A DNA stretch of 40,523 nt. It comes from Clostridia bacterium. Its GTDB lineage: Bacteria; Bacillota; Clostridia; Oscillospirales; SIG627. Shown one piece after another: positions 16,496 to 34,944 of this stretch (its first letter is position 1; each line of letters begins with the position of its first letter). The translations under genes and the position numbers were made by a program. Under the pieces are notes generated by a model that had not been told where the DNA came from, did no database searches, and saw only the letters and a list, made by a program, of their open reading frames with translations. The stretch lies in the NCBI GenBank assembly GCA_017453605.1, contig JAFTEP010000224.1, forward strand, positions 1 to 40,523, given 5' to 3'.

Positions 16496-16537
16496 TAATA
16501 TTTGCGAAATTTCAATGTTCTTTTACGCCTTGCGACA

Positions 16538-16566
16538 CAAAAAGCGAGCCAAAAGGCTCGCTTTTC
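16538..16566 (-). terminator. intrinsic terminator after the isomerase-family gene
   Basis: Hairpin AGCGAGCC-loop-GGCTCGCT followed on the minus strand by TTTTT. Confidence 0.7.
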
Positions 16567-16596
16567 GGTGTCTTGATATTTATCGTCCCGGGGCGG

Positions 16597-17997: not shown

Positions 17998-18111
17998 GTT
18001 CCATCCCTTTCGAAAAACGAATATATCATTTTCAGACGCGCCGGAAAAACCTCCTCCGGCGCAATTTTTCCCATTCCATTGTAAAAGAAGAAAAAGAAAA
18101 AATATATAGAT

Positions 18112-18140
18112 TTTTGTTCGTTTTACTTTGATTTTGTTCG
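18112..18140. promoter_or_regulatory. direct repeat TTTTGTTCG x2 (20-nt spacing), candidate AraC-type operator
   Basis: Identical 9-mers at 18112-18120 and 18132-18140 in the divergent intergenic region. They lie just upstream of the TGGTAAAAT -10 of the AraC gene and upstream of a TACAAT (18083-18078) on the isomerase side. Confidence 0.4.
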
Positions 18141-18186
18141 AGAGTGTGGTAAAATACAAACAGTCATACCCGTTTGGAATCAAGAG

Positions 18187-19032
18187 GTGGTTTTTTTGAT
18201 CTCGATCTTCGATCCCGACAAGCTGCGGGATCTGTTGAAAGACTATTATGAGCTCACCCGGATCCGCATCACCGTCTTCGACGGGAACCTCAGCGAACTT
18301 GTCTCCTATCCCGAAGACGTCGCGCCCTACTGCGCCGTCATCCGCTCCAATCGCGCCGGATTCGAAGCCTGTATGCGCTGCGACCGGGAGGCTTGCGAAC
18401 GCGCGGCAAAAAAGCGCGGCACGCATATATACCGCTGTCACGCCGGTCTTACCGAGGCGGTGACGCCCCTGTACGTCGGTGACGTGCTGGCGGGCTATCT
18501 TCTCTGCGGACACGCGTTCGTCTACGAAGACCACAAAGAGGGGATCGCCGCCGTGGAGCGACTCACGGAGGACCTTGACCTCGACAGAACTCTCCTTCGC
18601 AAAGCGCTCCGGACTGCGCGCCCGATGGGTGAGGGGTTCGTCCGTTCCGCCGCGCATATACTTCACGCCGTGGCTTCATTTCTGATCTTGGAGCGCATGG
18701 CTGCGCTCAAAGAGGATCTTCTCGCCGTGAGGCTGAACGCCTACCTGTCCTCACACTTCACCGAGAAAAACTGCGCGTCAGAGGCGGGCGCGCATCTCGG
18801 TGTGGGGAAGACGAAGCTTTACGAGCTCTCACGTCAGCTCTACGGACGGGGGATAGCCGCCCGGATCCGCGCCCTGAGAATGGAAAAGGCAAAGTCTCTC
18901 CTTCTTGAGCGCCGGGATCTGACAGTCGCCGAGATCGCATCGCTCTCGGGATACGCCGACTACAACTATTTCATCACCGTCTTTTCCCGCGAGACCGGCA
19001 AAACGCCCGGCGCTTTCCGAAACAGTCGATGA
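18187..19032 (+). CDS. PocR-sensor / AraC-family HTH transcriptional regulator
   Basis: N-terminal PocR-like Cys/His-rich domain (CAVIRSNRAGFEACMRCDREAC ... RCHAGL). C-terminal AraC HTH (TVAEIASLSGYADYNYFITVFSRETGKTPGAFR). The likely true start is the TTG at 18196, 5 nt after AAGAGGTGG. Confidence 0.8.
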   Translation: MVFLISIFDPDKLRDLLKDYYELTRIRITVFDGNLSELVSYPEDVAPYCAVIRSNRAGFEACMRCDREACERAAKKRGTHIYRCHAGLTEAVTPLYVGDVLAGYLLCGHAFVYEDHKEGIAAVERLTEDLDLDRTLLRKALRTARPMGEGFVRSAAHILHAVASFLILERMAALKEDLLAVRLNAYLSSHFTEKNCASEAGAHLGVGKTKLYELSRQLYGRGIAARIRALRMEKAKSLLLERRDLTVAEIASLSGYADYNYFITVFSRETGKTPGAFRNSR

Positions 19033-19048
19033 TAACGCTTACGAAAAA

Positions 19049-19075
19049 TCTGCCCGCGCTGTCAGCGCGGGCAGA
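19049..19075. terminator. bidirectional intrinsic terminator between convergent genes
   Basis: 12-bp stem TCTGCCCGCGCT / AGCGCGGGCAGA flanked by an A-run and a T-run. Confidence 0.75.
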
Positions 19076-19093
19076 TTTGGTTTTGTTGTCAGA

Positions 19094-22000
19094 TCACGGA
19101 GCCGAGGAGAGGCGTTTTGCGGTGATGCCGCTTGAGTCGACTCTAACCTCGAACCAGACGGGCGCGTCGTTATATCCGGCGGGCGCCTCGGTCTCTTTCA
19201 GATAATACTTGCCGTAGGGGAGCTTTCCGATCCAGAACGCGCCGGTCTCGCCGGATACGCAGTCGGATGCGACGACGGTCATATCCACGCGGAGGATGTC
19301 GAATTTCGCGCCGGAGAGCGACTGGAAGCTCGTGTTGATCTTTCTGAAGATGACCTTTCTCTCAGCCCGGGATTCGTTGAGCAGTCCGTAGACGGGGATA
19401 TCGGGGACCGCGTCCACGGTCGTGCTGTCCGACATACGCTCTACGAGGTAGTCAGAGCCCGCCGGGAGAGTGATCCCTTCGACCGTGGTGCCCGCCGCTC
19501 CGACGGTCACCCTGTAGATGTAGCTGTTGGTGCGGCAGCCTGTCACTGTGCCGATCTCGGTCATGTAGTAGACTCCGTTCGGGACCTTGAAGCCCACGTT
19601 GAAGCCGTTGACGTCGAGCGTCGTCGCGGAGGTCACCGTGTCGGTCTTGGTTGTGCCCACGGTGAGGCTGACGCGTCCCGAGGTGCCCTTGGCGACCGCG
19701 TCGGAATAGGAAGTGTAGAGCGAGAAGACTGCGCCGGGAAGCGCGTTTCCGAAGCCGTCGATCTTCCTGAAGAAGACCTCTTTTCCGCCCGATCCGTTGG
19801 TGAAGGTCAGCGTCAGGTCGTCGCCGGGAACGCTCACGATCGTATAGGACCTTGAGTTCTCAGCCCAGGAGGTGCTGCCGGTGTATCCGCCGCCGGCAGT
19901 GTAATATGCCGCCGCCGTCGTCTGATAGTCGTCCTCGAGAGTCAGGGTGGGATCCGTGGTCCCGCTCAGACCGGTCTCGCGGACCTGCAGGCGCGCGCCG
20001 ACCGGAAGGGTCAGGACCATCGTGCCGCCGTGCCGGAGCGTGAAGCTGTACTGGCCGCTTGCGTCTGTCAGAACGTCGTCTGAATCGTCGGCTGGCGTCC
20101 CGTTGACGAAGATCGCATATCCCGGGATGCCGGTCGCGCCCTTGCTCAGCGTCGCCACGAACGTGAAGGTGCCGGAGGTGTCGTCCGCGGTGACTTCCTT
20201 TTCGACGGTGACGTCGACGGTCTTTGCCTTATTGGTGAAGGAGATCAGATCCTTGTCGTTCGACGCGGCGACGGTCGTGTAGGTGTAGGAGCTGCCCGTA
20301 TCGGCGGGAACGACTTCGTTCGAGCCGTTTGTGATCCTGTAATAAGTCTCGTACGTCTCGGCTATGGTCACCAAACTGGAACTGCTGACTCGTCTGGAGA
20401 CTTCCTCGGCGACAGTAAGGTTGGCCGCGCCGATCGGGACGGTGAAGGTGGTCCTGCTGCCGCTCGCGAGGGCGATTGCGTTCTCGCCGGATTTGTTGAC
20501 CGTCTCGGTCACACCGTTCAGGGTGTTGCTGTAAGAGACCGCGAAATAGAACGTACGTCCGGATCCGAGGAGCGGGTCGATGAGGGTCTTTTCGATCGAC
20601 AGATCGACCGTCTTCTGGTTGTAGACGGTCACCAGGAATCCGTCGGTCTTGTTGCCGGTGATCACGATGTGCATCGCGTCGTCGGAGGTCACGGTGTCGT
20701 CACCGGAGACCGTCAGTGTCACGTCTCTGTCGAGACCGAGATATCCGCTCTGGACCCAGTGCTCGATGAGGGAATACTCGCCGACGGAGAGGATGCCGTC
20801 GTAGATCAGGTTGTCGTCCGGCGTCGTGTACTTGTGGTTGACGATCGAGGAAACGTCGGCGCGGAGGCTGAACTGAGCCTCGACGTCCGTGTAGGTCGTC
20901 GTTCCGTCGAATCCCACGAGCACGATGCGAACGGGGTAGGATTTGAGAGTGTTGGTGAAGGTCAGCGTCTCGTCGGCGGTGACCGTGAACTTGTAGACGT
21001 TGTCGGCGGCGTCGGTGTCCGCCGAGCCGTTCTGAGCGGCCGCCGTGACGTCGAAGCTGTTGTCGGCGATCTCGGTCACCGTCAGGATCGCGCCGACCGG
21101 GATTTTCTCGGCGAAGGCCGTGCCTGTGGAGGAGGAGCTGAGGACGGAGATGTTCTGAAGGGTCTTTGTGACGGTCACTCCGTCTTCGGTGAGGGTGTAG
21201 CTTCCTCTGAAGGTGAACGCCATGTCGGCGGGATGATTTTTGAGGACCTTTTTCACGGTCACCTCGGCCGTCTTGCGGGCGTTGGTGTAGAAGACCGTGC
21301 CGCCGGTGGTGTAGTTGGTCCAGGAAAGGAGGTTCCCGTTAGTGGTAAGGCTGTCCGGGATGATCTCGGACTCGACCGAGGAGGTGGTGATGTAGTTTGT
21401 GTATTCCGCCTCAACGACCTTGATCTCGAGGTAGAAGTTCACGACCGCGGAAACGTTGATGTCGCCGGTCGTGACGACCAGCGCGGATCCGATCGGCTGA
21501 TCGTTCGTCCCGTATTTCTGGATGGTCTGGGTGACCTTCGCCTTCCCGGTGCTCTCGCCGTCGATGACCTCGGTGACGATGACCATATACTGCTCGTTGG
21601 TGAGCGAGATCACGGGAGAAGTCCTCTCGGTGATGGTCCCGTTGATGTGGGCCTCGTCGTTGCGGTAGGAGCCCTTGAAGGAGACGGTGAAGTCGAATTC
21701 CTTGTCCTGTTTTCCGGGCTCGGGGATCAGCTTGTAGACCCTGACCGTGTTCGCCTTGTCGTCGCTGCTCCAGATCGCATACAGCGTGACGACGTCGTTG
21801 TGGTCAGTGTCTTTTGCCTCGAAGAAGTCGGTCATGCTCGCGATCAGAAGCGAATCGGCGTTGCTCGCGAGATACTCCGGCAGATCTGTGCCGTTTTCGA
21901 TGTCCGGACGGAGAGAAGGATCCTCGTCCCAGCCGACGAAGGTCCACGCCAGACGCGTGCCGGTGCCGGGCAGGGTGTAGGGGAGTCCGACGTAGTTGTC

Positions 22001-25000
22001 GTCGGTCGAATAGTTCGAGAAGTAGACCTCGGTGCGGCTTCCGTTCCAGTTCTGGTCGAGGATCAGGACCTTGTCGGCCTTCCTGGTCGTGAAGGTGACG
22101 GTCAGACCCTTCTCGGTGTCGCTGTGGTTCTCCTTGAGCATATCGGTGATGCTGAAGGAGGCAAGGTTCTCTTTGTGTCCCGCGGGATGTCCGTCCTTCA
22201 CGCCGTTCAGATCGGTCTCCCAGTAGAGCATATAGCCCGTGCCGAGGTTGTTGGTGCCGGTGATCGTGATGTTCTTATCGGCGCCGTTGGGGATCGCGAG
22301 TCTGAGCGTCTCGCCCTGATGCACGACGATGTTGGAAAGGCTGTCGAGCGGGATGCGCTCGTAGACGCCTCTCTTCTCGTTGACGACTGTCAGCGCGGTG
22401 CCGTCGGTAGAAGTCAGGGAGAGAGTGATGTCTCCGTGGTTCTCCTCGGTGTTGTTGACGATGTTCAGATAGACCATCGGCTCCCAGACCGCGTAGATCG
22501 TGCGGTCCTCGTGTCTCTGGACCGCGATGATCGAGTCGGCGGGGTAGGTTGCGACGTAGTCGCCCTCGTCCGGTAGATCGTCAAAGCCGATGAGCAGATA
22601 GCCCGAAGGATGCCGGAAGTAGTTGACGCCGACCGGATCGAGCGCGTTGCCGGAAATATCGTCAGTCAGCTTGGTGGAGTAGCGGTAGAGGTGCGCGTTG
22701 ACGCTGCTCTGGATATCGCAGAACGCGATCGTGTCTGTGTCGGGGTCCATGACGAGTGTTCCTACGCCGTCCCAGTCGAGATCCCTCAGAGCTGAAAGCT
22801 CGGTGCCTTCGACCAGATCGTCCCCCTCGTAGTAGGAGCCCGTGGTGAGATATCCCGAGTTGGCGTCGAGAGTGAGATCGGTCACGTAGGGACGTCTGTA
22901 GGAGGAATCCTTCTCCTCGTAGACCGCCTGGATGTAGATGTAGCTCGACTTGTCGGCAAACGCGGCGCTGACGATGAAGTCGTCGCCCGGATCGTAGAAC
23001 TTTCCGGGTTCAAGAGGATTGTAGACGACGTTGCCGCCTCCGTCGACCGACTGGCTCACAAGACGCCAGCCGCGGAAGATATACTCGTCGGTAGTGAGGC
23101 CGTTCGCGGTAAGACCGGTGGGCTGCTGGAGGATCTCGGTCTTGGAACCGTCCGCGTAGTTGGATCCGGGTGCAAACGGATCCTCCCACTGATCCATGAA
23201 CATCGCGCCGTTGATGATCGTGCCGTCTTCCATCTTGTATTCGGGGATGTAATGGATGCGGTATCCGGCGTCCAGACGCCACTGGGCGCGCAGGGTCAGA
23301 GCCCCGGATACGGGAGTCGAGAAGTTGTAGGGCATGGAGCTGGTGCCGGTCTCGTTGCCTTCGTTGTCATAGAAGACTTCATACCAGCCTAAGAATTCAT
23401 AGTGCTCGCCGGAGAAGATATAGCGGTATTTCTGATCGGAAACGTAGGTGTTGCGCCAGGCGGCCTCGCCGAGGAGGGTGGTCCCGGAGATGTATCCGCC
23501 CTGCAGGTTGCCCTTGACCCAGTCGCGGTAGAACAGGTAGTACTGATGGAGCTCGTCCTCGGTCATATAGAGGGCGTTGCGCAGATCGGAGGGGAGAGAG
23601 CTTCCGTCGGTGGGCAGGTTCTGAGTGTTGACGTAGTAGTAGACGGTCTCGCCGTTTGCGGCGTAATCAGCGGCCGCGGCGTCGCTCAGAGGCACGTAGG
23701 TGCGGTTCAGGGCGTATTCGCCGACCATCTCGCCGTAGATGCCGTTGAAGTAGGTGGACTGGTCGCTCCTGTAGCCGGTGTCGGCCGCGCGTTCCAGATC
23801 TCCTTCTGAATTGTATATCTCGGAGCGGTTGAAGGTCGCGAAGGGCACCCACGAGGGATCGTAGGCGTCCGCGGAGTAGCTGACAGCGTTGCCGTCGGCG
23901 TCCCACCAGTAGTTGTTGTAGCCCTTGCGGTTCATCTCGGCGCCGTTGTTGTTGTAATTGTGGTTGACGTGGTCGATCTCGGCGCCGTTGGGGTCGATTT
24001 TGACGCGGTATCTGACGGGCTTGTAGATCGCGTAGAGGACGATCTGACCGTCCGGCATGGTCCTGTTGAAGTCGAAGGCGTTTCCGACTCCGTCGATGTT
24101 CTCATACCAGCCGGCGAAGGTGTGACCCTCGGGGGTGTTCTCTATCGCGAGCTGAGTATGGGCGTCGTCCGCCGCGGAGAGATCCTGCCCGTAGTAGTAG
24201 GTATAGGACCCGAGCTCATTGTTGTTTGAGTCCTTGAAGGTGAGCGTGTGATCGTTGGGCTGGAAGCGGAAGACCATTATCATACCGGTCCCGACCCCGG
24301 CAGCTTCAAGTTCGGCGACGGTGTAGGCGCCGTAGGTGTTGTTGCTGGCGGGGTTCAGCTCGGTGCCCGCGTTGTTGATGACCTTCGTGTCGACCAGGGT
24401 GTAGCCGTAGTAGGTCGGAGGCGTCTGATCCTTGGGGTTGGAGCCCGAGCCCGCGGTGATGACGAACTTCGAGGTCGGCTCGGAGGGATATTCGCGGGTG
24501 TCCACGTCCGCAAGGTAGATGCGGTAGAGGTACTTGTGAGAGTTGTTCAGTGTTGTGTACCTGCAGTGGAATTCCTGCGTGATCCCGTACTCGCCGGAGG
24601 TCGTGTTCGTGTCGTGGGCGGGATCGCTTATCGAGACCGCGGTATATGTATCGGGGTTGCCGTCCGTGCGGCCGCCGTTGACGTAGCCCGTGTTCCTGTT
24701 TCCTCCGGTGAGGATCAGGTCCTCGGAGATCGTCTCGAACAGACCCTTGATACTGGAGCTGACTCTGTACCAGTAGTAGCTGTCCTGCTGCGGGATCCAG
24801 CCGACGAACAGATAGGAGTTGGTGCCGTTGACTCTCTTCGGCTGAGTGCCGGGGTATTCGTCGATGATGGTCTCGCCGAATTTGCCGGTGATCTCGTAGT
24901 AGAAGACGATGTAGTTCGATCCGCCGTTTGTCGTGGTGTAGGTCCCGTTATATTCGGAGGGTCCGAACGGGTTGGTGTTGCCGAGAGAATAGCGGTTTGT

Positions 25001-28000
25001 CGTCAGGAAGCCGTCATATCCGCCGCCGTCTGCCGAATTGGTGACGTAGCTGACGAAATATTCCCAGGTGCCCTGCATCGTGGTCTGCCTGTAGAGCGCG
25101 CCGCCGTAGACCGCCATCGGGTAGACCGTGCCGGTATAGGAGTTCCCGTTATAGGAATAGGAATAGGTGTTGTTTTCTCCGGCGGGGACGGCGGGAATGT
25201 AGGCGCCAGCCGCGCCGTAGCCGCCCTCGGCGTCATAGAAATAGGAGGCGCCGCCGCGGGAAACGACGTGAGTCGCGTCGGTCTCGGGATAAGTCGTTGA
25301 GCCGCCGTTTTTGGCGCGGGTGTAGCGAGTGCCGGTGTAGGGCGCGCCATTCAGAGTGTACTCCCAGGATGTGGTGGAAGTGTCGGTCTTCTCGTAGAGG
25401 TAGGTGGTGTAATTGCCGCTTCTTAATGTGAAACGGTTGTAACCGCCGCCCGATCTGTAATACAGAGAATAGTTGCCCGATTTCAGACGGTTATTGTTTC
25501 CGTCCCAGGTCCAGTTTGTACTGTTGTCGTTTGTCGTGCTGATCTGGATCGTGGAGCTATTGTTGTTATTGCGAATAAAATAACCGCCGTTTGAGAACTT
25601 CCAGGCGTTCCCGTTCGCCGTTGCGGTCCAGACAGCGGTGGCGTTAACACCGCTCGAGGAAATATACGGCGCGTTGATGCTCGAGGTCGCCGCGTTGACC
25701 GTTATGCCGACGTTTGAGTAGTTGGCGCCGTTGTGTCCAAGCGCGTAACCGGAACCGTTGTTGTTTCTCGAAACGATCAAATACTCGTTTCCGTCTGTCA
25801 GAGTGGAAGTCAGCTTATATACAGGATCGCCCGGAACTGTCGTCGGAGTTCCGACGAGTTCGACGTAATCTCCGTTTGCGTTTACGCCGTAAAGCCCGCT
25901 TTCGGCGTTGGAAGAGGTCGAGCTGTAAACATATTCCGGCTTGTAAAGATGGACGGTGCTTTCGACGGTCGCGGTCAGGGGAACGTAGTCGCTGCCGATC
26001 AGGCCGTAGGGAACGCCGTTCGCGTCGGCGACGATCCAGTTGCCGTCGACGTCCTTGATGAGCGCGGTGTACGCGCCGTTGACGACGCCGTAGACCGTTC
26101 CGGTGTGCGACGCGGCCTCGGAGGGGGTCATCGTCGTGTAGGTGACGGTCGAGCCCGTGGTGCTCGTCTGGCGCGCGAAGCCGATATCGAATCTGAGCGT
26201 GTAGATATTGCGGTCGTAGTAGACGTTGACTATCGTGCTTCCGTCGCCCTCGATCGTCTGCTGGCGGATGCCGGACTGGACTCCGGCGGCGCTCTTGTCC
26301 TGATCCTCGCTGAGGTGGCAGAACCTGAGCTTGTTGTCCCTGTAGAGATCGGTGTTCGAGGCGATCTGCGTCGCCTCCGTCTGTGTGCCCGAAAGTCCCT
26401 GCAGAACTTCATAGGTCAGCAGGGTGTAGTTGTCGTCGTTGGCGTTCTGCAGCCAGTAGACTACGGTATAGGGCGTCAGTTCCGAGGTCCATTCGGCGTA
26501 GAGATTCAGAGATTCGAGGCCCTTGTAGACGTACAGCTTTCCGTTCTCGACCGTGAAGCGCTTGTGGGTCGTGCCCCCGACTGTGACTGAGTTGGTGTAA
26601 TTCGACGCGGTGTAGGCGCAGCTGTCGTCGCTCACCCATTGGGTCAGCTTGTAGGCCCTGCGGTTCTCGGTGACGGTCTGGAGATTGCCCGCATTGTCGA
26701 AGTAGTGGATCTCGACCGGCATCGCGGTGTCGATGTTGAGGATGTTTCCGTCGCTGTCGACTACCGCGTCGGCGTACCAGCCCTCAAGCTTGTAGCCGGG
26801 GCGCTTGCTGACGGGAAGCGTCTCGAACCAGGTCCCGCCGTCATCGTCGTTGGTGATGCGGTATTTTGCGGGGACGTAGGTCGCTCCGTTGCCGGATCTG
26901 CCGGTATTGAAGTAGATCCAGCGCGCTTCGTCGAAGACCGGGTAGAGATCTATCTCCTCCTCGACGAAATCGCTCTTCGAGAAGGTCGCGTAGTATTCGC
27001 CGTTCTGAGAAGTATTCGAGCTGTCGATCTCGTTTCCTTCAAGGTCGACCGTGCGGTAACGGTTCACGGTGAAGCCGTGTGCGTCGATGGTCTCCCAGCC
27101 GGAGAACACGTATTTGGTGGGGTTGGTGCTCGGGGAAGAGATGTTGCCTATGCGGACGGTGACCCGTTCGTCGCTTCCGAGAACGACCATCTTTCTCGCG
27201 TAGAGACTCGAAGCCAGATTGGGGTCGTCCTTGGTGCCGAGGTGGAAGTTGATGAAGTAGTAGTCCTCGTAGATCGGCGCCAGGAACATGTGCACTGTGC
27301 CCTCTTCGTCGAGCTCTCCGGAGCCGAAAGCGTCCTCTATCCTCCAGTAGACGATGTCTCCGACCTGAGGATCCGTTGAGGGAAGAGTCAGCGTTATTGG
27401 CTTTTCGAAGCTGAGCTTCATGGGATCGTCGGACCAGGTGTAGATGATCTGCGAGCCGTCGTCGGTGAAGCGTCCTTCGACGAGGTACCATCCGAAGAAG
27501 TACTGCTCAATAAGTCCGCCGTTCCCGTCGTCAACGCTTCTGTTCGCGGGGTTCTTGACAAATTCGAGGGATTCGCCGTTGATGAGGATCTGGGACGTCT
27601 GGTCTGTGCCGCCCTTGTTGGGGAACAGGTATTCGCCCGCCTGATATTCGACGGGGCTGAGAGTTTCGTACCCGCTGTCGGCGGAGGTGTGGTAGACGGG
27701 GTCGATGAAGTGGAACTGGACGCGCGCGGTGACGACTTTCTCGTCTCCCTCGTGGGCGATGACGACGTAAGCGGAGAAGCCGTCGGTCTTGAACTCTACG
27801 GTGCTTCCGCTGACGGACGCGTTCATGATCTCTTTGTCTTCTCCGAAGTGGACGACTTCGATCTCTTCGCCGCTGTTTTCAAGATCCTCGTCGATGAGCT
27901 CGATCCTGACGGCGACGGCATTGTTGGGCTGATATTTCTCGTTCGTGTCGGGATCCCTGAGAGTGATGTCGAAAACTCTCGCGAGAGAGAAATCCTTCGG

Positions 28001-28333
28001 GTCGGAGCCCAGAAGACGGGCGCTCTCGCTCACATATTCCTCGTAGGAAAGCGCGTAAGAGTCGCCGACGGAAAAATCCGTCACCGAGATCCCGTATTCT
28101 TCCTCAAGCTCGGTGCCCTGCTTGACGATCTCCCTCACGTCGAGAACGGCGTCCGAGGGGATGCCCGACGAGCCGTCGAACGATACCGTGACTCGGTAGT
28201 TGTTGCCGTCTGAGGCGGTCAGGGTATAGGTGCGCGTCAGCGCGGACACGGCGTACTGCAGAAGCGCGCCGAATCCGGTGAAGAGCATTATGAAGACGCA
28301 GATCAGTGAAATGATTCTTTTAGATTTTTCCAT
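19094..28333 (-). CDS. giant secreted/surface protein (3079 aa): Listeria-Bacteroides (Flg_new) repeats, lectin-like N/S/T-rich insert, Ig-like and SpaA/Cna-B-type domains; no LPXTG
   Basis: N-terminal signal/anchor MEKSKRIISLICVFIMLFTGFGALLQYAV. Many GW-type repeat signatures (FFGWY, FSGWE, LEGWY, FAGWY, FLGWY, FRGWR, FVGWD). C-terminal prealbumin-like modules (FFRKIDGFGNALPGAVFSLY, IFRKINTSFQSLSGAKFDIL). Ends ...ITAKRLSSAP with no sorting signal. Confidence 0.85.
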   Translation of the reverse strand: MEKSKRIISLICVFIMLFTGFGALLQYAVSALTRTYTLTASDGNNYRVTVSFDGSSGIPSDAVLDVREIVKQGTELEEEYGISVTDFSVGDSYALSYEEYVSESARLLGSDPKDFSLARVFDITLRDPDTNEKYQPNNAVAVRIELIDEDLENSGEEIEVVHFGEDKEIMNASVSGSTVEFKTDGFSAYVVIAHEGDEKVVTARVQFHFIDPVYHTSADSGYETLSPVEYQAGEYLFPNKGGTDQTSQILINGESLEFVKNPANRSVDDGNGGLIEQYFFGWYLVEGRFTDDGSQIIYTWSDDPMKLSFEKPITLTLPSTDPQVGDIVYWRIEDAFGSGELDEEGTVHMFLAPIYEDYYFINFHLGTKDDPNLASSLYARKMVVLGSDERVTVRIGNISSPSTNPTKYVFSGWETIDAHGFTVNRYRTVDLEGNEIDSSNTSQNGEYYATFSKSDFVEEEIDLYPVFDEARWIYFNTGRSGNGATYVPAKYRITNDDDGGTWFETLPVSKRPGYKLEGWYADAVVDSDGNILNIDTAMPVEIHYFDNAGNLQTVTENRRAYKLTQWVSDDSCAYTASNYTNSVTVGGTTHKRFTVENGKLYVYKGLESLNLYAEWTSELTPYTVVYWLQNANDDNYTLLTYEVLQGLSGTQTEATQIASNTDLYRDNKLRFCHLSEDQDKSAAGVQSGIRQQTIEGDGSTIVNVYYDRNIYTLRFDIGFARQTSTTGSTVTYTTMTPSEAASHTGTVYGVVNGAYTALIKDVDGNWIVADANGVPYGLIGSDYVPLTATVESTVHLYKPEYVYSSTSSNAESGLYGVNANGDYVELVGTPTTVPGDPVYKLTSTLTDGNEYLIVSRNNNGSGYALGHNGANYSNVGITVNAATSSINAPYISSSGVNATAVWTATANGNAWKFSNGGYFIRNNNNSSTIQISTTNDNSTNWTWDGNNNRLKSGNYSLYYRSGGGYNRFTLRSGNYTTYLYEKTDTSTTSWEYTLNGAPYTGTRYTRAKNGGSTTYPETDATHVVSRGGASYFYDAEGGYGAAGAYIPAVPAGENNTYSYSYNGNSYTGTVYPMAVYGGALYRQTTMQGTWEYFVSYVTNSADGGGYDGFLTTNRYSLGNTNPFGPSEYNGTYTTTNGGSNYIVFYYEITGKFGETIIDEYPGTQPKRVNGTNSYLFVGWIPQQDSYYWYRVSSSIKGLFETISEDLILTGGNRNTGYVNGGRTDGNPDTYTAVSISDPAHDTNTTSGEYGITQEFHCRYTTLNNSHKYLYRIYLADVDTREYPSEPTSKFVITAGSGSNPKDQTPPTYYGYTLVDTKVINNAGTELNPASNNTYGAYTVAELEAAGVGTGMIMVFRFQPNDHTLTFKDSNNNELGSYTYYYGQDLSAADDAHTQLAIENTPEGHTFAGWYENIDGVGNAFDFNRTMPDGQIVLYAIYKPVRYRVKIDPNGAEIDHVNHNYNNNGAEMNRKGYNNYWWDADGNAVSYSADAYDPSWVPFATFNRSEIYNSEGDLERAADTGYRSDQSTYFNGIYGEMVGEYALNRTYVPLSDAAAADYAANGETVYYYVNTQNLPTDGSSLPSDLRNALYMTEDELHQYYLFYRDWVKGNLQGGYISGTTLLGEAAWRNTYVSDQKYRYIFSGEHYEFLGWYEVFYDNEGNETGTSSMPYNFSTPVSGALTLRAQWRLDAGYRIHYIPEYKMEDGTIINGAMFMDQWEDPFAPGSNYADGSKTEILQQPTGLTANGLTTDEYIFRGWRLVSQSVDGGGNVVYNPLEPGKFYDPGDDFIVSAAFADKSSYIYIQAVYEEKDSSYRRPYVTDLTLDANSGYLTTGSYYEGDDLVEGTELSALRDLDWDGVGTLVMDPDTDTIAFCDIQSSVNAHLYRYSTKLTDDISGNALDPVGVNYFRHPSGYLLIGFDDLPDEGDYVATYPADSIIAVQRHEDRTIYAVWEPMVYLNIVNNTEENHGDITLSLTSTDGTALTVVNEKRGVYERIPLDSLSNIVVHQGETLRLAIPNGADKNITITGTNNLGTGYMLYWETDLNGVKDGHPAGHKENLASFSITDMLKENHSDTEKGLTVTFTTRKADKVLILDQNWNGSRTEVYFSNYSTDDNYVGLPYTLPGTGTRLAWTFVGWDEDPSLRPDIENGTDLPEYLASNADSLLIASMTDFFEAKDTDHNDVVTLYAIWSSDDKANTVRVYKLIPEPGKQDKEFDFTVSFKGSYRNDEAHINGTITERTSPVISLTNEQYMVIVTEVIDGESTGKAKVTQTIQKYGTNDQPIGSALVVTTGDINVSAVVNFYLEIKVVEAEYTNYITTSSVESEIIPDSLTTNGNLLSWTNYTTGGTVFYTNARKTAEVTVKKVLKNHPADMAFTFRGSYTLTEDGVTVTKTLQNISVLSSSSTGTAFAEKIPVGAILTVTEIADNSFDVTAAAQNGSADTDAADNVYKFTVTADETLTFTNTLKSYPVRIVLVGFDGTTTYTDVEAQFSLRADVSSIVNHKYTTPDDNLIYDGILSVGEYSLIEHWVQSGYLGLDRDVTLTVSGDDTVTSDDAMHIVITGNKTDGFLVTVYNQKTVDLSIEKTLIDPLLGSGRTFYFAVSYSNTLNGVTETVNKSGENAIALASGSRTTFTVPIGAANLTVAEEVSRRVSSSSLVTIAETYETYYRITNGSNEVVPADTGSSYTYTTVAASNDKDLISFTNKAKTVDVTVEKEVTADDTSGTFTFVATLSKGATGIPGYAIFVNGTPADDSDDVLTDASGQYSFTLRHGGTMVLTLPVGARLQVRETGLSGTTDPTLTLEDDYQTTAAAYYTAGGGYTGSTSWAENSRSYTIVSVPGDDLTLTFTNGSGGKEVFFRKIDGFGNALPGAVFSLYTSYSDAVAKGTSGRVSLTVGTTKTDTVTSATTLDVNGFNVGFKVPNGVYYMTEIGTVTGCRTNSYIYRVTVGAAGTTVEGITLPAGSDYLVERMSDSTTVDAVPDIPVYGLLNESRAERKVIFRKINTSFQSLSGAKFDILRVDMTVVASDCVSGETGAFWIGKLPYGKYYLKETEAPAGYNDAPVWFEVRVDSSGITAKRLSSAP

Positions 28334-28412
28334 CGGATATTTTCCTTATCGATCGGGATGATTTTTCTTTGTTCATCTTCGTCCGCGCCCGCCCGGCGCG
28401 AACTTTTCTTCA

Positions 28413-30617
28413 TTAATTCTTTATATTGATGATCCTGACCTCGGGCGAAGGCCAGTCGCCGAAGTGCTTTGCGACAAAATCCGTGCTTGAGACGGACGCG
28501 CCGAGCTGTTCGACTGTCAGAAGGGCGTAATCGCCCTGATAATACTGTACGAGGGACGCGTCGTATGCGGACGCGCTCTTGCGGGTGCCGGTGAGATAAG
28601 CGTTGTAGATCGCGCTGGTCTCGTCGAACGCATCTATATCCGCCGAGCCGGGATCCATGTATCTCTTGCCGTCGGCGCCTGCGTCGAGCTCGTTGACGAT
28701 CTCATAGTAGTAATTGAGATTTGAAAGCTGCGCCGATCCGGAGACTTCTGCGACGAACGCGCCGGAAGAGGCCGTGGCGTTCACAAGACCGGTCGCGTAG
28801 CAGTTCGACACGAGTCCGCCGTCTATCGCCGCCGCCAGACCTCCGGCGGCCGCTCCCTTCGCGGAGCAGGTGGAATAACTGTTGTAAACTGTCGAGCCGG
28901 TCGAGGTCCCGATGAGACCGCCCGCGCTTCCGCCCGCCGCCGTCACGTTGAAGGACGCGGGGTCGTAGGCGCCGTTTTGGGTGTGTCCGCCGGAATAGCA
29001 GGCGCTGACGGTCGCGGCTCTCGCCTCGCCGATGAGTCCGCCCGCGTCTGCGGCGATCCCTGACGAGCTGACGACCAGAGCCGCCGCGCTCTTTGTGATC
29101 TGGCTGTTCTGAGCGCGGCCGATGAGTCCGCCGACGTCTCCCGCGCCGCTTATAGTCGCGGCAGCGGAGGAACTGCTGTTGATGGCGACAACGTTGGCGA
29201 CGGTCGATCCGAGGGCCGTTCCCGCGAGGGCTCCGGCTCCCGAGGTCCCGCCCGCGATCGTGAAGTCGACGAGCTTGAGATCCCTGACTGTGTCGCCGGT
29301 CAGATCGCCGAACAGACCCGCCGACTGAGAAGAGCCGGAGGTGTCGGCGTCGATCCCGGTGATCGAACAGAGCGCGCCGTCGTAGGTCATGGTATAATCC
29401 GCGGTGTTGACCGGCTTGAATTTCGCGTCGGTGAGCTGACCGGAAGCGCCGTAGATCCTGGGGTAGACGGATGCGTTCCAGGTGAGATCGGTGGTCTGCA
29501 GGGCGCTGACCTGCTCGGAAGACGTGACGTGCTTCAGCGCGGAGTTTGTCACGTTCACCGAAGACACGGTCCGGTCGAGATTTTCGAGATGGCGGATATA
29601 CGAGACGTGCGCGGACGCCTTGTCCGAATCGTTGTATGCGAACAGACTGTTGGTCGTCTGTTTGGTGCTGTAGGCGACGTTGGTGAGTTCGCTGTTGTTG
29701 TATGCGACCGCCTGGATCGTTATATCCTCGCCGGGGATCAGAGGATCGGTCCCCGTGCAGAAAAGATCGGCAAAATGCTTTCCGGACTGAGTGATATCGT
29801 CGAGGACGATGTCTCTGTAGACGACGTTGTCGGTGTTCTCGGTCACGTCGGAGTTGGAGTAGTATTCCGAAAGACCCGCCAGAGAGAGCGTGATCTCGCG
29901 GCTGTTCTTGCTGGTCACGCCGGTGATTATGAGTTTCAGCTTCGCGTTGGGGTTGCCTTTGTTGAAATCCGTGACGGTGACGGTCAGCTTGTCGGCGTTT
30001 GTTACGACGATCTTCGGCGCCAGAAGCTCTGCGCCCTTCGTGAGGGCAGCGGCCTCGGCTCCGCCGTACCATCCGATGACGGAGCTGTCGCCGACGTAGG
30101 TCCTGAGTTCGCTCTTATGTTCTTCGCCGGTCTTGGTCATGAAGTCGGCGTAGTTGTCGGCGTAATTATGTCTGAACCGCCCGCTGTCCTCCCAGTAGAA
30201 AACGTCGAGGACCGTCGCGGCGTCGCGGTGGTAGCGGATGATATAGCAGCCGCTCGCCCTGATGTGCTCGTCGACGGCGGCGAAGGGGAGCATGAGGTCG
30301 AAAACGGTGGTCTCAAGGCTCGCGCGGTTGTTGCCGGCCTTGACGAAATAGTATACCCCCGTGTTTTTGTTTTCGGAGTCCTTTTCGGGGATGCCGAAAT
30401 CGGTGCGTCCGAGATATCCCTGGCTTTCCGCCATGGACAGATGGTTCTGCGCCGCGACGAAGATCTCCTTCGCGAATGCGTCGTATTCGAGCTTGGTCAT
30501 GGAGCGCAGGTAAGTATGGACGGCGACAAAGACAACGGCGGCGAGGATGAGCACTATCGCCACTGTAAGAAGTGCCTCCGCCAGCGTGAATCCCTTTTCG
30601 CGTCTGTTTTTGTTCAT
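28413..30617 (-). CDS. modular type IV pilin-like protein with C-terminal GLUG-repeat domain (734 aa)
   Basis: Class III signal MNKNRREKG|FTLAEALLTVAIVLILAAVVFVAV with Glu5. C-terminal GLUG-type repeats (GGLIGRAQNSQI, AGGLIGEARAATVSACYSGG, AGGLIGTSTGSTVYNSYS, GGLVSNCYATGLV). ATG at 30617 follows GGTGA; the track start at 30626 is a GTG inside the RBS. Confidence 0.8.
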   Translation of the reverse strand: MNKNRREKGFTLAEALLTVAIVLILAAVVFVAVHTYLRSMTKLEYDAFAKEIFVAAQNHLSMAESQGYLGRTDFGIPEKDSENKNTGVYYFVKAGNNRASLETTVFDLMLPFAAVDEHIRASGCYIIRYHRDAATVLDVFYWEDSGRFRHNYADNYADFMTKTGEEHKSELRTYVGDSSVIGWYGGAEAAALTKGAELLAPKIVVTNADKLTVTVTDFNKGNPNAKLKLIITGVTSKNSREITLSLAGLSEYYSNSDVTENTDNVVYRDIVLDDITQSGKHFADLFCTGTDPLIPGEDITIQAVAYNNSELTNVAYSTKQTTNSLFAYNDSDKASAHVSYIRHLENLDRTVSSVNVTNSALKHVTSSEQVSALQTTDLTWNASVYPRIYGASGQLTDAKFKPVNTADYTMTYDGALCSITGIDADTSGSSQSAGLFGDLTGDTVRDLKLVDFTIAGGTSGAGALAGTALGSTVANVVAINSSSSAAATISGAGDVGGLIGRAQNSQITKSAAALVVSSSGIAADAGGLIGEARAATVSACYSGGHTQNGAYDPASFNVTAAGGSAGGLIGTSTGSTVYNSYSTCSAKGAAAGGLAAAIDGGLVSNCYATGLVNATASSGAFVAEVSGSAQLSNLNYYYEIVNELDAGADGKRYMDPGSADIDAFDETSAIYNAYLTGTRKSASAYDASLVQYYQGDYALLTVEQLGASVSSTDFVAKHFGDWPSPEVRIINIKN

Positions 30618-30635
30618 TTCAATCACCGTTTTGAA

Positions 30636-31175
30636 TTATGTTCGGTCTGTCAGTATCCTGATTTCGAAAGTGTCTATCTCGGTCACGGTCGTATCGCCGT
30701 TCAGCACCGTGAGTCCGGTCACCGTGACGACTCCGCCGGAATAGTCGAACGCGCACGTCGTGTGCAGGTTCTTGTTCGACGCCTCGGTCGTGACCAGCAG
30801 ACGGTTGAAAGTGTCGTCCTCGATCACGTCGGTGTACTCGTGTATGTAGATGCCGGGCTTTTGCGAAACGTCCGATCCGACGATGTAGATCTTGCTTTTG
30901 CTTCCGTTGTCGCTCGTGTAGGCGATCTCGTTCTTCGCGTCGTTCACCGTGATGTCCTTGGCTGTGCCGAGCTCGTCGCGCAGGCGCGTCATCGTCGTCG
31001 AGAGGAGCACCTGGGCGTTTGCGGAAGTGACGATCTTGCTGTATGCGCTCGCGGCTGTCGGTATCCCCGCCGCCAGGACCGCGGTGACCATGAGCAGGAT
31101 CAGGATCGCCATGAGCATCTCGGCGAAGGAGAATCCGCCGCGCGAATTCAGTCGCGTTCTTATCCTTTTTGTCAT
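30636..31175 (-). CDS. prepilin-type N-terminal cleavage/methylation domain protein (pseudopilin, 179 aa)
   Basis: MTKRIRTRLNSRGG|FSFAEMLMAILILLMVTAVLAAG: Gly-1, Glu5 and a hydrophobic helix. 4-nt ATGA overlap with the upstream gene. Confidence 0.8.
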   Translation of the reverse strand: MTKRIRTRLNSRGGFSFAEMLMAILILLMVTAVLAAGIPTAASAYSKIVTSANAQVLLSTTMTRLRDELGTAKDITVNDAKNEIAYTSDNGSKSKIYIVGSDVSQKPGIYIHEYTDVIEDDTFNRLLVTTEASNKNLHTTCAFDYSGGVVTVTGLTVLNGDTTVTEIDTFEIRILTDRT

Positions 31176-31516
31176 GACGCCACCCTGTAGCTCTTCACGC
31201 TCTCGTTCTCGGAGTTCGAGTAGTAGACGACGGTGATGCTTCCCGCGCCGTCTGTGAGAGTGATCGTTTCGGAGCCTTCCTTTATGCTCACGGTGCCGGT
31301 CTCGGAGGAGCCGTTCTGCTCGACGACCGAGCGGTCCGCGCTGACGTAGTCGGCGACCTTTTCCCTGCTGTTGGAGATCATCGTCGAGGAGGCGTTTATC
31401 ATTCCCGCGAGAAGAACGATCGCGAGCGAGGAGACGAGCAGGGCGATCAGGATTTCGGAAAGGCTTTCGCCGCGGACGTCCTTTAACTTTTTGAGGATCT
31501 TAGGGGTTCGTTTCAT
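31172..31516 (-). CDS. prepilin-type pseudopilin (114 aa)
   Basis: MKRTPKILKKLKDVRG|ESLSEILIALLVSSLAIVLLAG: Gly-1, Glu at +5 and a hydrophobic helix. Overlaps the upstream gene by 17 nt. Confidence 0.7.
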   Translation of the reverse strand: MKRTPKILKKLKDVRGESLSEILIALLVSSLAIVLLAGMINASSTMISNSREKVADYVSADRSVVEQNGSSETGTVSIKEGSETITLTDGAGSITVVYYSNSENESVKSYRVAS

Positions 31517-32321
31517 TTGTCGCCGATGCCTCCTTTCTCAGACTTCCGACCGACCATTTGATCACGGAAGTTTCTTCCAGGACGGTCGTCCTTTCATAGG
31601 TCTGTATATATCCGCTTGAGGTCTGTCTCGTTCTCGTGCCGTCCGAGGAGGTCGTCTTTTCGGTCTCGTTGACCTCCGGGATCAGGGTGAGGATGACGCT
31701 GTAGCTGTCTTTTTCCGCGCCGTCCGTTATCCTCAGGACGAGCGTCCCGTCCGACTTCATGCTCCAGAAGACTTCGGCGTCAAGACTGCTGTCCGAGTGG
31801 GACACGGTGAACTTGCCTCCGCTCTCGGAGTTGGAGAAGGAATATCCCATCGCGGCTTCGTTGTTGCAGGAGGCGGATCCGAAGAGCAGATGCACGGCGC
31901 GCGCCGTGAGGAAACTCAGATCGGCGGTCGAAAGGAGGTAGTCGGGCGAGGAATATTCGACGGAACCTACTGTCGTTTTATAATTGTATTCGACGTTATC
32001 GACGGGGGTTCCGGGCGAAACGTTCTCGGCGCCGTCGACGATCGAAACGGTGTACGGCGTTTCGGTCGCGTTCAGAGTGGTTTTGGTGCGGACGATCTTC
32101 ACTTCTTTCCCGCAGAGCAGATCCTCGAGCAGTTCGGCGGCGGAAGAAACTTTGTAATATCTCTGATCCGATTCGACGAGCCCGCTCATCCTTCCGGCGG
32201 ACGCGGTCGCCGCGGTGAGGACCACGGCTCCGATGACTGCGCAGACAAGGAACAGTAGAAGTGCCATCGAAAGAGAAGCGCCCTTGTTAGATCTCAGTTT
32301 TTCGATAATAGGTTTGCCCAT
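31500..32321 (-). CDS. pilin-like protein lacking Glu5 (GspK/PilX/ComGG-like cap candidate, 273 aa)
   Basis: MGKPIIEKLRSNKG|ASLSMALLLFLVCAVIGAVVL has Met instead of Glu at +5. I prefer the ATG at 32321; the 33-aa extension to 32420 has no RBS and is non-pilin-like. Confidence 0.65.
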   Translation of the reverse strand: MGKPIIEKLRSNKGASLSMALLLFLVCAVIGAVVLTAATASAGRMSGLVESDQRYYKVSSAAELLEDLLCGKEVKIVRTKTTLNATETPYTVSIVDGAENVSPGTPVDNVEYNYKTTVGSVEYSSPDYLLSTADLSFLTARAVHLLFGSASCNNEAAMGYSFSNSESGGKFTVSHSDSSLDAEVFWSMKSDGTLVLRITDGAEKDSYSVILTLIPEVNETEKTTSSDGTRTRQTSSGYIQTYERTTVLEETSVIKWSVGSLRKEASATNETNP

Positions 32322-32430
32322 CGTGATAATTATACCTTTCCGACGCACTCCAAAAACCATTCTGTCGGCGTCGCTGAAAATCGTTTGAACATTTTTATCC
32401 ATAGTATAATAGTTCAGCATACTACTATAA

Positions 32431-32512
32431 CCCGAAAATTTTAAATCTTTATTACTTATCTATGAACAAACTATAAATTAGTCCAAAACTCCCGAAAGTT
32501 TTTATCTTTCTT
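32431..32512. repeat. two ~22-nt direct repeats 60 nt apart in the AT-rich divergent intergenic region
   Basis: CCCGAAAATTTTAAATCTTTA (from 32431) and CCCGAAAGTTTTTATCTTTC (from 32491). Local GC is far below the window average. Confidence 0.5.
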
Positions 32513-32618
32513 TTATATGACGAATCAACTTTTTCAAATAATTGTCAGCTTATGTCCTTATTGCTGTCAGATCCCGCCGTTTTTCTCTGCGCCCCGGGGA
32601 CTTGAATTTGCCCGCATA

Positions 32619-32638
32619 ATGTTGTAAAATGTTGTAAA
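32619..32638. repeat. perfect tandem duplication ATGTTGTAAA x2
   Basis: Units at 32619-32628 and 32629-32638, about 100 nt upstream of the first WYL gene. Confidence 0.6.
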
Positions 32639-32738
32639 AATTTGAAAAAGAAATACTCCGGGCGCTTTTTGACGTTCACCCGAAACCACTTGCGGCAAAA
32701 GCTCCCGACAGATCTCCCCAACCCGGCAGGTGATCGTT

Positions 32739-33989
32739 ATGGCATACAGCGAGCTTATAAAGAATTTCGGCAGGATCCGCGATTATATGCGCGAGTTTTA
32801 CGTTTACGGCTTCAAGAGCCGGGACGAATACACGCTCAAAAGCGCCAGATCCTACGACGACGAGCGGAGGCGGCTGGAAAGCTGGCTCGGCGACTATATG
32901 GGATTCAGGCAGACCCCCGACGGGAAGAAAGTGTTTCTTTCCATCGACAGCAGGATCTGCCGTCACAATCCGCTTTACAAGGCGTGGAAGGCGAAGAGCT
33001 TCACAGACGGCGACATAACTCTGCACTTTCTCTTGTTCGATATCCTCTGTTCACCTGAGATCAGCCTGACCCTGAACGAGCTGACCCAAAAACTCGACGA
33101 ATATCTTGAATTTTTCGGCGGGCCGAGGACCTTCGACGTCTCCACCGTCCGCAAAAAGCTCAAAGAATACGTTTCGGAGGGGATAATCGTCGCCGAAAAG
33201 CGCGGGAAGACGCTTTGCTACCGCCGCGCCGAGGGCGATCTCACGTTCGATCCCGACGCGCTCGCGTTCTTTTCGGAGGTCGCGCCGGTCGGAGTCGTCG
33301 GCTCGTACCTTCTCGACAAACAAAGCCCCTCCCCCGACCGCTTCGCCTTCAAGCATCACTACATAACAGGGGCGCTCGACAGCGAGATCGTCTGTCAGCT
33401 CCTGGACGCTGTATCTTCCGGGCGGTATATCACTCTCGGGACCGTGAACCGCAGGAAGGACAGGCTCTCGGAAAGCCGCGTCGTGCCGCTCAGGATATTC
33501 ATAAGCGTGCAGAGCGGCAGACACTATCTGATGGCGTTCGCGCCTCGATTCAGGCGCATCACCTCCTACCGGATCGACAACATCCTTTCCGTGAAAGAGG
33601 ACGAGGTCTGCCCGGAGTTCGGCGAGCTGAAACAGAGGCTCGAAGAGATGGAGCCGCATATCTGGGGAGTCAGCACTCAGGGCGGATCGGGCGAGCGGAT
33701 AGAGCACGTCGAGTTCACCGTGAGATATTCTCCCGAGGAGCCATTCATACATCAGCGGCTCGAGCGCGAGAAGCGCTGCGGAAAAGTCGAAAGGCTTTCG
33801 GACACTTCGAGCAGATTTTCCGCCGACGTTTATGACGCGACCGAGCTGGTCCCGTGGATCAGGACCTTCATCTGCCGCATAACCGACGTGAGTTTTTCCG
33901 ACAAGGCGCTCGAAAGAAGGTTCAGGCAGGATATTCTGGATATGTACGCGCTCTACGGCTTGGGATCGGAAGGCGGTGACGGGAAATGA
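32739..33989 (+). CDS. WYL-domain protein A (N-terminal YGFKSR-type region + wHTH, WYL, WCX-like C-terminus)
   Basis: WYL core GRHYLMAFAPRFRRITSYRIDNILSV. The ATG at 32739 lies 5 nt after AGGTGA; the track start at 32730 is a GTG inside the RBS. Confidence 0.75.
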   Translation: MAYSELIKNFGRIRDYMREFYVYGFKSRDEYTLKSARSYDDERRRLESWLGDYMGFRQTPDGKKVFLSIDSRICRHNPLYKAWKAKSFTDGDITLHFLLFDILCSPEISLTLNELTQKLDEYLEFFGGPRTFDVSTVRKKLKEYVSEGIIVAEKRGKTLCYRRAEGDLTFDPDALAFFSEVAPVGVVGSYLLDKQSPSPDRFAFKHHYITGALDSEIVCQLLDAVSSGRYITLGTVNRRKDRLSESRVVPLRIFISVQSGRHYLMAFAPRFRRITSYRIDNILSVKEDEVCPEFGELKQRLEEMEPHIWGVSTQGGSGERIEHVEFTVRYSPEEPFIHQRLEREKRCGKVERLSDTSSRFSADVYDATELVPWIRTFICRITDVSFSDKALERRFRQDILDMYALYGLGSEGGDGK

Positions 33990-34894: not shown

Positions 34895-34913
34895 CGGGTT
34901 CGCAGCTTTTTTT
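34875..34913 (+). terminator. intrinsic terminator after the WYL pair
   Basis: A-run, stem GCTGCG ... CGCAGC spanning the stop codon, then T7. Confidence 0.7.
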
Positions 34914-34915
34914 CC

Positions 34916-34944
34916 GTGATTTTTCCGAAAAAAGGTGTTAAAAT
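34916..34944 (+). promoter_or_regulatory. candidate promoter for the structured leader / DUF2828-RtcB transcript
   Basis: -35 GTGATT (34916-21), 17-nt spacer, extended -10 TGTTAAAAT (34936-44). The predicted TSS near 34951 is just before the first RNA module. Confidence 0.45.

Follow-up and report, generated by a model that had tools for sequence, protein, structure and literature searches.

A 40,523-nucleotide (nt) contig from a Clostridia bacterium (GenBank assembly GCA_017453605.1, contig JAFTEP010000224.1, positions 1 to 40,523), referred to here in its entirety as the window, carries on its minus strand four genes for pilin-like proteins (P1, P2, P3, and P4) and, after them, a gene for a 3,079-amino-acid (aa) protein without a sorting signal, designated the giant. 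The conserved pairing of such pilin sets and giants in related loci points to a pilus-tip adhesin that has not yet been described for single-membrane bacteria. Under the reading that we favor, and to which we assign an even chance, the giant is a dedicated non-pilin tip adhesin of a type IVa pilus whose minor-pilin (initiation/tip) set is P1 to P4, making it a functional analog of PilC/PilY1. This reading draws on the gene anatomy of the window, the conservation of the four-gene set, the adjacency of the set to pilus machinery in relatives, and the linkage of set and giant in both directions.

Type IV pili of monoderms are thought to adhere via the pilins themselves, whether major or modular minor ones, and to our knowledge non-pilin tip adhesins (PilC/PilY1 and possibly MshQ) occur only in diderms. 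No account of a giant anchorless adhesin coupled to minor pilins in a monoderm emerged from full-text literature searches, in line with a preliminary description of this DNA, which knew of no earlier report of the combination. Term searches of a 2021 study of modular pilins (PMC8179133) and of a review from 2019 on type IV pili of monoderms likewise returned no non-pilin tip adhesin in monoderms.

Linkage of the giant gene to a conserved pilin set

Related loci were gathered via homologs of P3 and P4, independently of the giant, which gave 25 unique loci including the window (designated L001 and so on). All of the related loci come from metagenomes or metagenome-assembled genomes (MAGs) of uncultured Clostridia, mostly from the ruminant gut, and their taxa include Ruminococcus, Butyrivibrio, Lachnospiraceae, Blautia, Eubacterium, Oscillospiraceae, and Acutalibacteraceae. 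When family profiles were applied, every locus of the 25 that was long enough kept the order P1-P2-P3-P4 on a single strand. Directly 3′ of the set in L003/L005 (Eubacterium sp. MAG) lie genes for PilB (MshEN plus T2SSE), PilT, PilC (T2SSF), a 237-aa protein, PilD (Peptidase_A24), and PilM, and the layout of the machinery is the same in L017. PilB follows the set in L013, PilC and PilD are present in L015, and PilD is present in L020; a canonical pilin of 131 to 151 aa is located near the set in L011, L014, and L031. Since the set adjoins PilB-PilT-PilC-PilD-PilM in relatives, it is a genuine minor-pilin set of a type IV pilus, as the preliminary description had supposed.

To judge from the sequences of these neighbors, the pilus that P1 to P4 serve is a retractile one of type IVa rather than a Com pilus. 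A Com-type pseudopilus, in which P1 to P4 would resemble ComGD to ComGG and serve DNA uptake while the giant would be unrelated, is suggested by weak NCBIfam matches to ComGE (P2 and P3), ComGF (P3), and ComGD, with E values of 6e-4 to 2e-3. These matches reach only 18 to 20 bits against curated cutoffs of 49 to 80 and cover mainly the N-terminal helix, the machinery of the relatives consists of PilT, PilM, and a PilB of the MshEN type (type IVa) rather than ComGA/ComGB, and neither the 734-aa modular P4 nor the linked giant has a Com counterpart. Because the scores fall far below the cutoffs and the neighboring machinery is of the type IVa kind, the Com assignment was rejected, and we consider it highly improbable.

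Giants were counted as same-strand open reading frames with Flg_new/SpaA matches that exceeded 2,000 aa or were cut by the sequence end. By this definition, a giant is located ≤250 nt from the set in 15 of the 25 loci, either upstream of P1 (L001, L008, L011, L012, L014, L016, L017, L019, L020, and L022) or downstream of P4 (the window, L002, L006, L028, and L031), and it is found farther off in two others (1 kb in L025 and 3.4 kb in L003). The order seen in the window, with the pilins first and the giant after them, is thus the minority arrangement. Four loci were too short to judge; among the 21 informative related loci, the pairing is present in 17, a recurrence far beyond chance. The preservation of linkage even though the giant switches sides of the set argues for functional coupling, and the co-occurrence that the preliminary description had proposed to check by comparative genomics is thereby established in several Clostridia families, on either side of the set. 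A search with the first 640 residues of the giant as the query was dominated by low-complexity candidates and gave six matches, of which three were useful (L028 to L030) and two were at contig ends.

The linkage was also approached from the side of the giant. All 13 giants with a visible C-terminal end (13/13) finish in a SpaA-like domain with the pattern RKVILRKV...LxGAxFxI...GVFFxGxLPYGTYYxHET...WFxLTV, followed by a tail of 10 to 45 hydrophilic residues that often ends in Pro, and none of the 13 has a sorting signal. A profile of this terminal domain scores 104 to 161 bits at the terminal position, where the sequences are those from which the profile was built, versus ≤23 bits on internal SpaA domains of the same proteins; the terminal domain is therefore a distinct subfamily and not another stalk repeat. 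The independent test is a metagenome scan with the terminal-domain alignment, which returned 80 loci. In 8/80 of these, the domain lies within about 50 residues of the protein end and no sorting signal is present (54 to 116 bits), and in 72/80 the domain is internal (≤49.8 bits) and most of the proteins carry the pattern of sortase substrates at their ends (PKTGD/LPxTG, then a hydrophobic segment, then KKRK). Pilus genes are located immediately downstream in 6/8 of the anchorless loci versus 0/72 of the sortase-type loci (Fisher p = 9e-8), and the 72 sortase-type loci have no P1 to P4 or Pil gene within 10 kb. Thus, the swap of a sortase signal for the terminal domain goes with type IV pilus linkage. 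The preliminary description had named giant-type proteins occurring without pilin genes as evidence against its proposal, and the proposal withstood this comparison.

The genes downstream of the eight anchorless proteins are PilD-PilM in L035, a canonical pilin in L036 (353 aa, 686 to 1747) and in L037 (357 aa, 9619 to 10692), P1 in L038, the complete P1-P4 set in L050 and L053, unrelated genes in L039, and an insertion sequence (IS) element in L040. The large canonical pilins of L036 and L037 directly follow the anchorless giant, a pairing that differs from that with the P1-P4 set. A representative search with the last 125 residues of the window giant gave a ranking led by proteins with many SpaA repeats and is therefore uninformative on the terminal position.

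Anatomy of the predicted operon and its proteins

All five genes lie on the minus strand of the window: P1 (32321 to 31500, 273 aa), P2 (31516 to 31172, 114 aa), P3 (31175 to 30636, 179 aa), P4 (30617 to 28413, 734 aa), and the giant (28333 to 19094, 3,079 aa). P1 and P2 overlap by 17 nt and P2 and P3 by 4 nt, and gaps of 18 nt and 79 nt separate P3 from P4 and P4 from the giant, respectively; the four consecutive prepilin-type genes and their junctions are thus as first described. The P4-giant spacer (28334 to 28412), for which the preliminary description had given about 80 nt and no terminator, contains no terminator-like site on the minus strand, its sole structure being a 6-bp GC hairpin at 28384 to 28400 that lacks a U-tract on the coding strand. 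Comparable P4-giant gaps of 58 to 72 nt occur in L002, L006, and L031. Just 3′ of the giant stop codon, a hairpin with a 15-bp stem (19046 to 19078) is common to the operon and to a convergent AraC/PocR gene (18187 to 19032) and is likely a shared bidirectional terminator and the end of the operon. By our analysis, the five genes would be cotranscribed. The region 5′ of P1 (32322 to 32729, minus strand), which would hold the leader and promoter, is AT rich with two weak sigma-70-like sites. A cyclic di-GMP (c-di-GMP) riboswitch had been suggested for the leader (32322 to 32738), but neither an Rfam scan of the window nor a permissive scan of the leader found a riboswitch of this or any other kind or another RNA family, the only match being an insignificant one to IMES-3 (E = 3.5), and this suggestion was dropped.

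The giant begins with a Sec-type signal peptide (MEKSKRIISLICVFIMLFTGFGALLQYAVSA/L; here and below, a slash marks the predicted processing site). As the preliminary description had observed, its C-terminal end (...SSGITAKRLSSAP; ...VRVDSSGITAKRLSSAP) contains no LPXTG motif, hydrophobic segment, or charged tail. Pfam gave three SpaA stretches at the C terminus and one marginal Flg_new match (27.8 bits against a cutoff of 27), and PDB sequence matches are only to Cna-B/SpaA domains of sortase-anchored (collagen-adhesin-type) proteins. Of the domain composition initially proposed, therefore, the C-terminal SpaA/Cna-B-type part is borne out, the Flg_new (Listeria-Bacteroides) repeats are represented by that single marginal match, and no family or PDB sequence match covers the region described as a lectin-like insert. 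No wall-binding module (SLH, LysM, CWB, or GW) was detected, and no Pfam or PDB match to the PilY1 beta-propeller (IPR008707) was obtained. The last SpaA-like domain with its short hydrophilic tail occupies aa 2978 to 3079 (19097 to 19402, minus strand) and is proposed to be a carrier or docking module; the penultimate one spans aa 2849 to 2952 (19478 to 19789, minus strand). Over most of its length, the window giant shares about 35% identity with its counterparts in L001, L002, and L014, and the part that it has in common with other giants is limited to the last 100 to 230 residues, always at their extreme C terminus. Among the near-identical contigs of the group L031 to L034, the giant was called at lengths from 4,263 to 4,942 aa, a spread that points to polymorphism in length or to differences in assembly.

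The class III pilin criterion (a short basic leader with Gly at its end, an N-terminal helix of about 20 hydrophobic residues, and Glu at +5) describes P2 (VRG/ESLSEILIALLV, i.e., G/ESLSE), P3 (SRGG/FSFAEMLMAILIL, i.e., GG/FSFAE), and P4 (EKG/FTLAEALLTVAIV, i.e., KG/FTLAE). The N-termini of P3 and P4 are canonical across related loci. P2, which occupies the same position in all related loci, is a minor pilin with Glu at both +1 and +5, and all of its homologs share the pattern G/E..(A/S/G/T)E. Glu at +1 is unusual for a mature pilin, the first residue of which is normally an N-methylated Phe, Met, or similar residue. P3 has more than 200 database homologs; its Pfam N_methyl match is weak in the window copy and is present in 28/28 of its relatives, and a search of the P3 profile against PDB sequences gave no match beyond the N-terminal helix.

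P1 has a class III-like N terminus (...KLRSNKG/ASLSMALLLFLVCAV), in which Gly is followed by a hydrophobic helix but Glu5 is missing, with Met at +5. Across related loci, the N terminus is always G/AS(I/L)(T/S)(F/Y/M)ALLLFLVCAV; position +5 is Met, Phe, or Tyr in the 20 loci with a visible N terminus and in 46 database relatives, and the latter all retain G14 and the hydrophobic stretch and all lack Glu5. The last strand is also conserved among relatives (..GSI.KEV..). The AlphaFold2 model of P1 (predicted local distance difference test [pLDDT] score, 89.1) has an N-terminal helix at residues 15 to 69 and a sheet of unusually long hairpins, with strands of 23 to 28 residues that are atypical of pilin heads. 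Neither P1 nor its 46 relatives match T2SSK, PilX_N, or ComGG in Pfam/NCBIfam at E ≤ 1, the P1 profile finds nothing relevant beyond the N-terminal helix among PDB sequences, and a Foldseek search of the model against the PDB gave only secretin beta-hairpins (template-modeling [TM] score ≤ 0.21), with no pilin in the top 50. Kinship with secretins was rejected, because the TM scores are low and the matches are spurious products of the atypically long strands. One relative carries the Joint Genome Institute (JGI) label “PilX.” The preliminary description had placed P1 with the GspK/PilX/ComGG subunits; the missing Glu5 stands, and with no Pfam family, PDB sequence, or fold match, the comparison goes no further than this residue. 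P1 is a candidate for the apical subunit of a tip complex.

P4 has Pfam N_methyl and GLUG matches that are both above cutoff, and a profile built from its family aligns with solved pilins across the N-terminal helix (E = 2e-7 to 6e-5). An AlphaFold2 model from a 70-sequence alignment (pLDDT, 92.9; predicted TM score [pTM], 0.86) comprises a helix (residues 12 to 65), a pilin head, Ig-like beta-sandwiches (about 200 to 330), a GLUG beta-helix (about 360 to 640), and a small C-terminal part. The model makes P4 a modular pilin as PMC8179133 uses the term, in keeping with its original description as such. The best Foldseek matches are streptococcal and Gemella IgA1 proteases (E = 3e-7 to 5e-4; query TM score [TMq], 0.25 to 0.30). 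A protease role was rejected because the HExxH motif is missing from P4, so the likeness is to the noncatalytic GLUG beta-helix region of these enzymes. The most conserved motif of the P4 family, (H)YGDWPxPE, is located at the extreme C terminus (28413 to 28470), and a short hydrophobic strand that terminates in N comes after it; this invariant HYGDWPxPE end may be an interaction or strand-insertion site. In L021, a Ruminococcaceae MAG, P4 reaches 3,241 aa (10660 to 20385): its core is joined to a duplicated GLUG region and to about 2,000 more residues that bear no relation to the giants, and the locus has no giant gene apart from it nearby.

Proposed tip display and alternative explanations

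In the favored reading, Sec would export the giant, and its last SpaA-like domain and short tail would dock physically on the membrane-embedded minor-pilin complex, with the Glu5-less P1 in the apical position and the modular P4 as an alternative docking partner. Machinery encoded at another place in the genome would polymerize the major pilin and in this way push the complex through the wall, and the variable, Flg_new-rich body of the giant would be displayed at the pilus tip for adhesion. The preliminary description had likened the genes to a PilVWX-PilY1 cassette. The two-way linkage makes this the best reading of the data, but the likeness of P1 to GspK/PilX/ComGG that was also proposed is not supported beyond the missing Glu5. 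Cast in evolutionary terms, the proposal is that gut and rumen Clostridia independently arrived at a PilY1-like solution, in which hypervariable adhesins of 3,000 to 5,000 residues have a dedicated terminal carrier domain, derived from SpaA/Cna-B, where a sortase signal would otherwise stand, dock through it on a complex of four minor pilins, and ride the tip through the wall; we advance this tentatively, at somewhat less than an even chance.

Several observations weigh against tip display. L009, L013, and L015 have no giant although their flanks extend for at least 3 kb on the sides that are informative, and unrelated genes lie between the giant and the set in L003. In a mirror-tree comparison, the distances of the terminal domain were not correlated with those of P1, P3, or P4 (Spearman coefficients, −0.26 to −0.04; n = 11) versus 0.29 to 0.52 for the pilins among themselves, the power being low with 11 loci that are all at about 40% identity. 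The tail after the terminal domain is poorly conserved, and that of the window giant is very short. The idea that this tail mimics the last strand of P1 was dropped since it was inconsistent within loci. P1 has no sequence or fold relation to GspK/PilX, the window contains no genes for machinery or a major pilin, and a protein of >300 kDa would have to travel through the Gram-positive wall on a pilus tip.

Some of these observations would suit a giant that is coregulated with the pilins and physically independent of them, that is, an ordinary secreted or noncovalently wall-bound adhesin within an “adhesion island.” The variable position of the giant, the 3.4 kb of unrelated genes in L003, the loci without a giant, and the missing covariation all agree with this explanation, as does the fact that the giant, which is not a PilY1 homolog, has no recognizable pilin-binding domain. 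Coregulation leaves unexplained, however, why one terminal domain is kept while the bodies attached to it are replaced and why pilus adjacency is seen in 6/8 anchorless and 0/72 sortase-type loci. The same-strand gaps of 17 to 135 nt indicate membership in an operon, and no module was detected by which the giant would bind the wall. On balance, we regard physical independence as unlikely.

A further alternative is pilus-dependent export or release, with the pilins acting as a piston or escort and the giant becoming wall associated or being shed instead of staying at the tip. Parallels would be type II secretion and the export of TcpF/CofJ by type IVb pili via TcpB/CofB; CofJ and TcpF bind the tip pilins CofB/TcpB. 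The genetic linkage that supports tip display supports this explanation equally, the giant has no anchor of its own, and the missing covariation and poorly conserved tail suit a transient contact more than a load-bearing one. With its size and modular build, P4 also recalls CofB and TcpB (PMC8179133). Against export or release, PilT beside the set in L003 and L017 indicates a retractile pilus and not a secretion pseudopilus, a C-terminal Cna-B/SpaA stalk is the mark of a tethered, projecting protein and not of a soluble factor, and a dedicated, conserved terminal domain suggests stable attachment. We therefore give this explanation a rather low probability.

If tip display is correct, the giants would be the first class of non-pilin tip adhesins for Gram-positive type IV pili, and building blocks of sortase pili would have been reused by a type IV pilus. 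Such adhesins would explain how many uncultured, fiber-associated bacteria of the rumen and gut attach to substrates, and the terminal domain would provide a simple sequence marker with which to recognize them in metagenomes. The mechanical puzzle of how a >300-kDa protein crosses a thick wall on a pilus tip would be raised at the same time.

Neighboring genes and comparison with known systems

Elsewhere in the window are genes for an AraC/PocR regulator, a hybrid histidine kinase, GGDEF/EAL proteins, WYL regulators, an AAA ATPase, RtcB, and a topoisomerase. PilB/T/C/D/M homologs are absent across the window by both Pfam and tblastn, in line with the original report of no PilB/PilC/PilD-type machinery, and no prepilin motifs other than those of P1 to P4 are present in it. 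A c-di-GMP/signaling cluster (8156 to 16243, minus strand) lies 3 to 11 kb past the giant stop codon and encodes an amino acid permease fused to GGDEF, a GGDEF-EAL protein with a receiver domain, and a hybrid histidine kinase of 1,254 aa that contains a solute-binding domain; the P4 gene of L001 directly adjoins one for a PAS-GGDEF-EAL protein (12825 to 15827). Because signaling genes are nearby but no riboswitch was found, c-di-GMP may control the system at the protein level. Divergent from the pilin operon (32730 to 38133, plus strand) are genes for a WYL-domain protein, a 302-aa protein with no match, a DUF2828/DUF7788 protein, and RtcB, which together look like a WYL-regulated RNA-repair cassette, and a second WYL/WCX regulator is located at 6503 to 7486.

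Additional genes accompany the set in related loci. A protein of 237 to 267 aa without a Pfam match is encoded directly upstream of PilD in L003 (17556 to 18269, between PilC and PilD), L015 (13382 to 14155), L017 (12571 to 13350), and L020 (13013 to 13816) and may be an uncharacterized pilus component. In L031 (6204 to 8079) and also in L032 to L034, which hold the closest relatives of the window P4, P1 is preceded by genes for a 133-aa pilin and a 453-aa Wzy_C (O-antigen-ligase-like) protein, the latter possibly a pilin O-glycosylation gene. In the Butyrivibrio MAGs L011 (12936 to 14237) and L014 (12867 to 14189), a 433- to 440-aa LRV/HEAT-repeat protein is encoded between P4 and the small canonical pilin.

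Among known systems, tapirins of Caldicellulosiruptor are non-pilin binding proteins encoded near a pilus locus. They are several times smaller than the giant. Nothing was found that links them to the system reported here, and no conserved association with a set of four minor pilins is mentioned in the abstract on them. The C-terminal SpaA/Cna-B stalk of the giant is shared with sortase-anchored Cna-B/SpaA surface proteins and pilus tip adhesins of Gram-positive bacteria. The giant differs from them in having no LPXTG-like motif, hydrophobic segment, or charged tail, and the lack of a sorting signal means that sortase would not act on it; the sortase-type relatives of the metagenome scan, with PKTGD/LPxTG, a membrane segment, and KKRK, are never beside a pilin set. 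Modular pilins as defined in PMC8179133, such as Streptococcus sanguinis PilB with a vWA module and PilC with a lectin module or CofB/TcpB, resemble P4 in grafting bulky modules onto a pilin module, a tendency carried furthest by the 3,241-aa P4 homolog of L021. The term “GLUG” does not occur in the main text of that study (supplementary data set excluded), and the system described here differs in that its main adhesin would be a separate non-pilin protein rather than a module of a pilin.

The closest parallel is to PilC/PilY1, which is exported by Sec, is encoded beside minor pilins, and combines a variable adhesive N-terminal part of up to >3,000 residues with a conserved C-terminal part (PMC13533445). 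The last ∼10 residues of PilC/PilY1 complete the sheet of the Glu5-less PilK, which joins PilI-PilJ, and this licenses assembly and holds the adhesin on the tip; MshQ has been proposed to act in the same way (PMC13533445). As in PilC/PilY1 with PilH-I-J-K (FimU-PilVWX) and in MshQ with MshDOP (PMC13533445; PMC8179133), the set described here has four members, one of which lacks Glu5. A large Sec-exported non-pilin protein is encoded beside the set (adjacent in 15 loci and near in 2), and it too has a hypervariable part, N-terminal and presumptively adhesive, and a conserved C-terminal “carrier” part. The differences are that the host is a monoderm, that P1 has no detectable relation to PilK/GspK/PilX, that the fourth pilin is a 734-aa modular one, and that the order begins with the K-like subunit and ends with the large pilin, with the giant on either side. 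The giant also has no beta-propeller and is, therefore, not a member of the PilY1 family; its C-terminal module is of the SpaA/Cna-B type, as in sortase-pilus proteins. A 2026 study suggested that large tip adhesins arose only within the diderm lineage of type IVa pili, type II secretion, and MSHA pili (T4aP/T2SS/MSHA; PMC13533445). The conserved pairing in Clostridia would extend the principle of the non-pilin tip adhesin to single-membrane bacteria, by way of a nonhomologous carrier domain.

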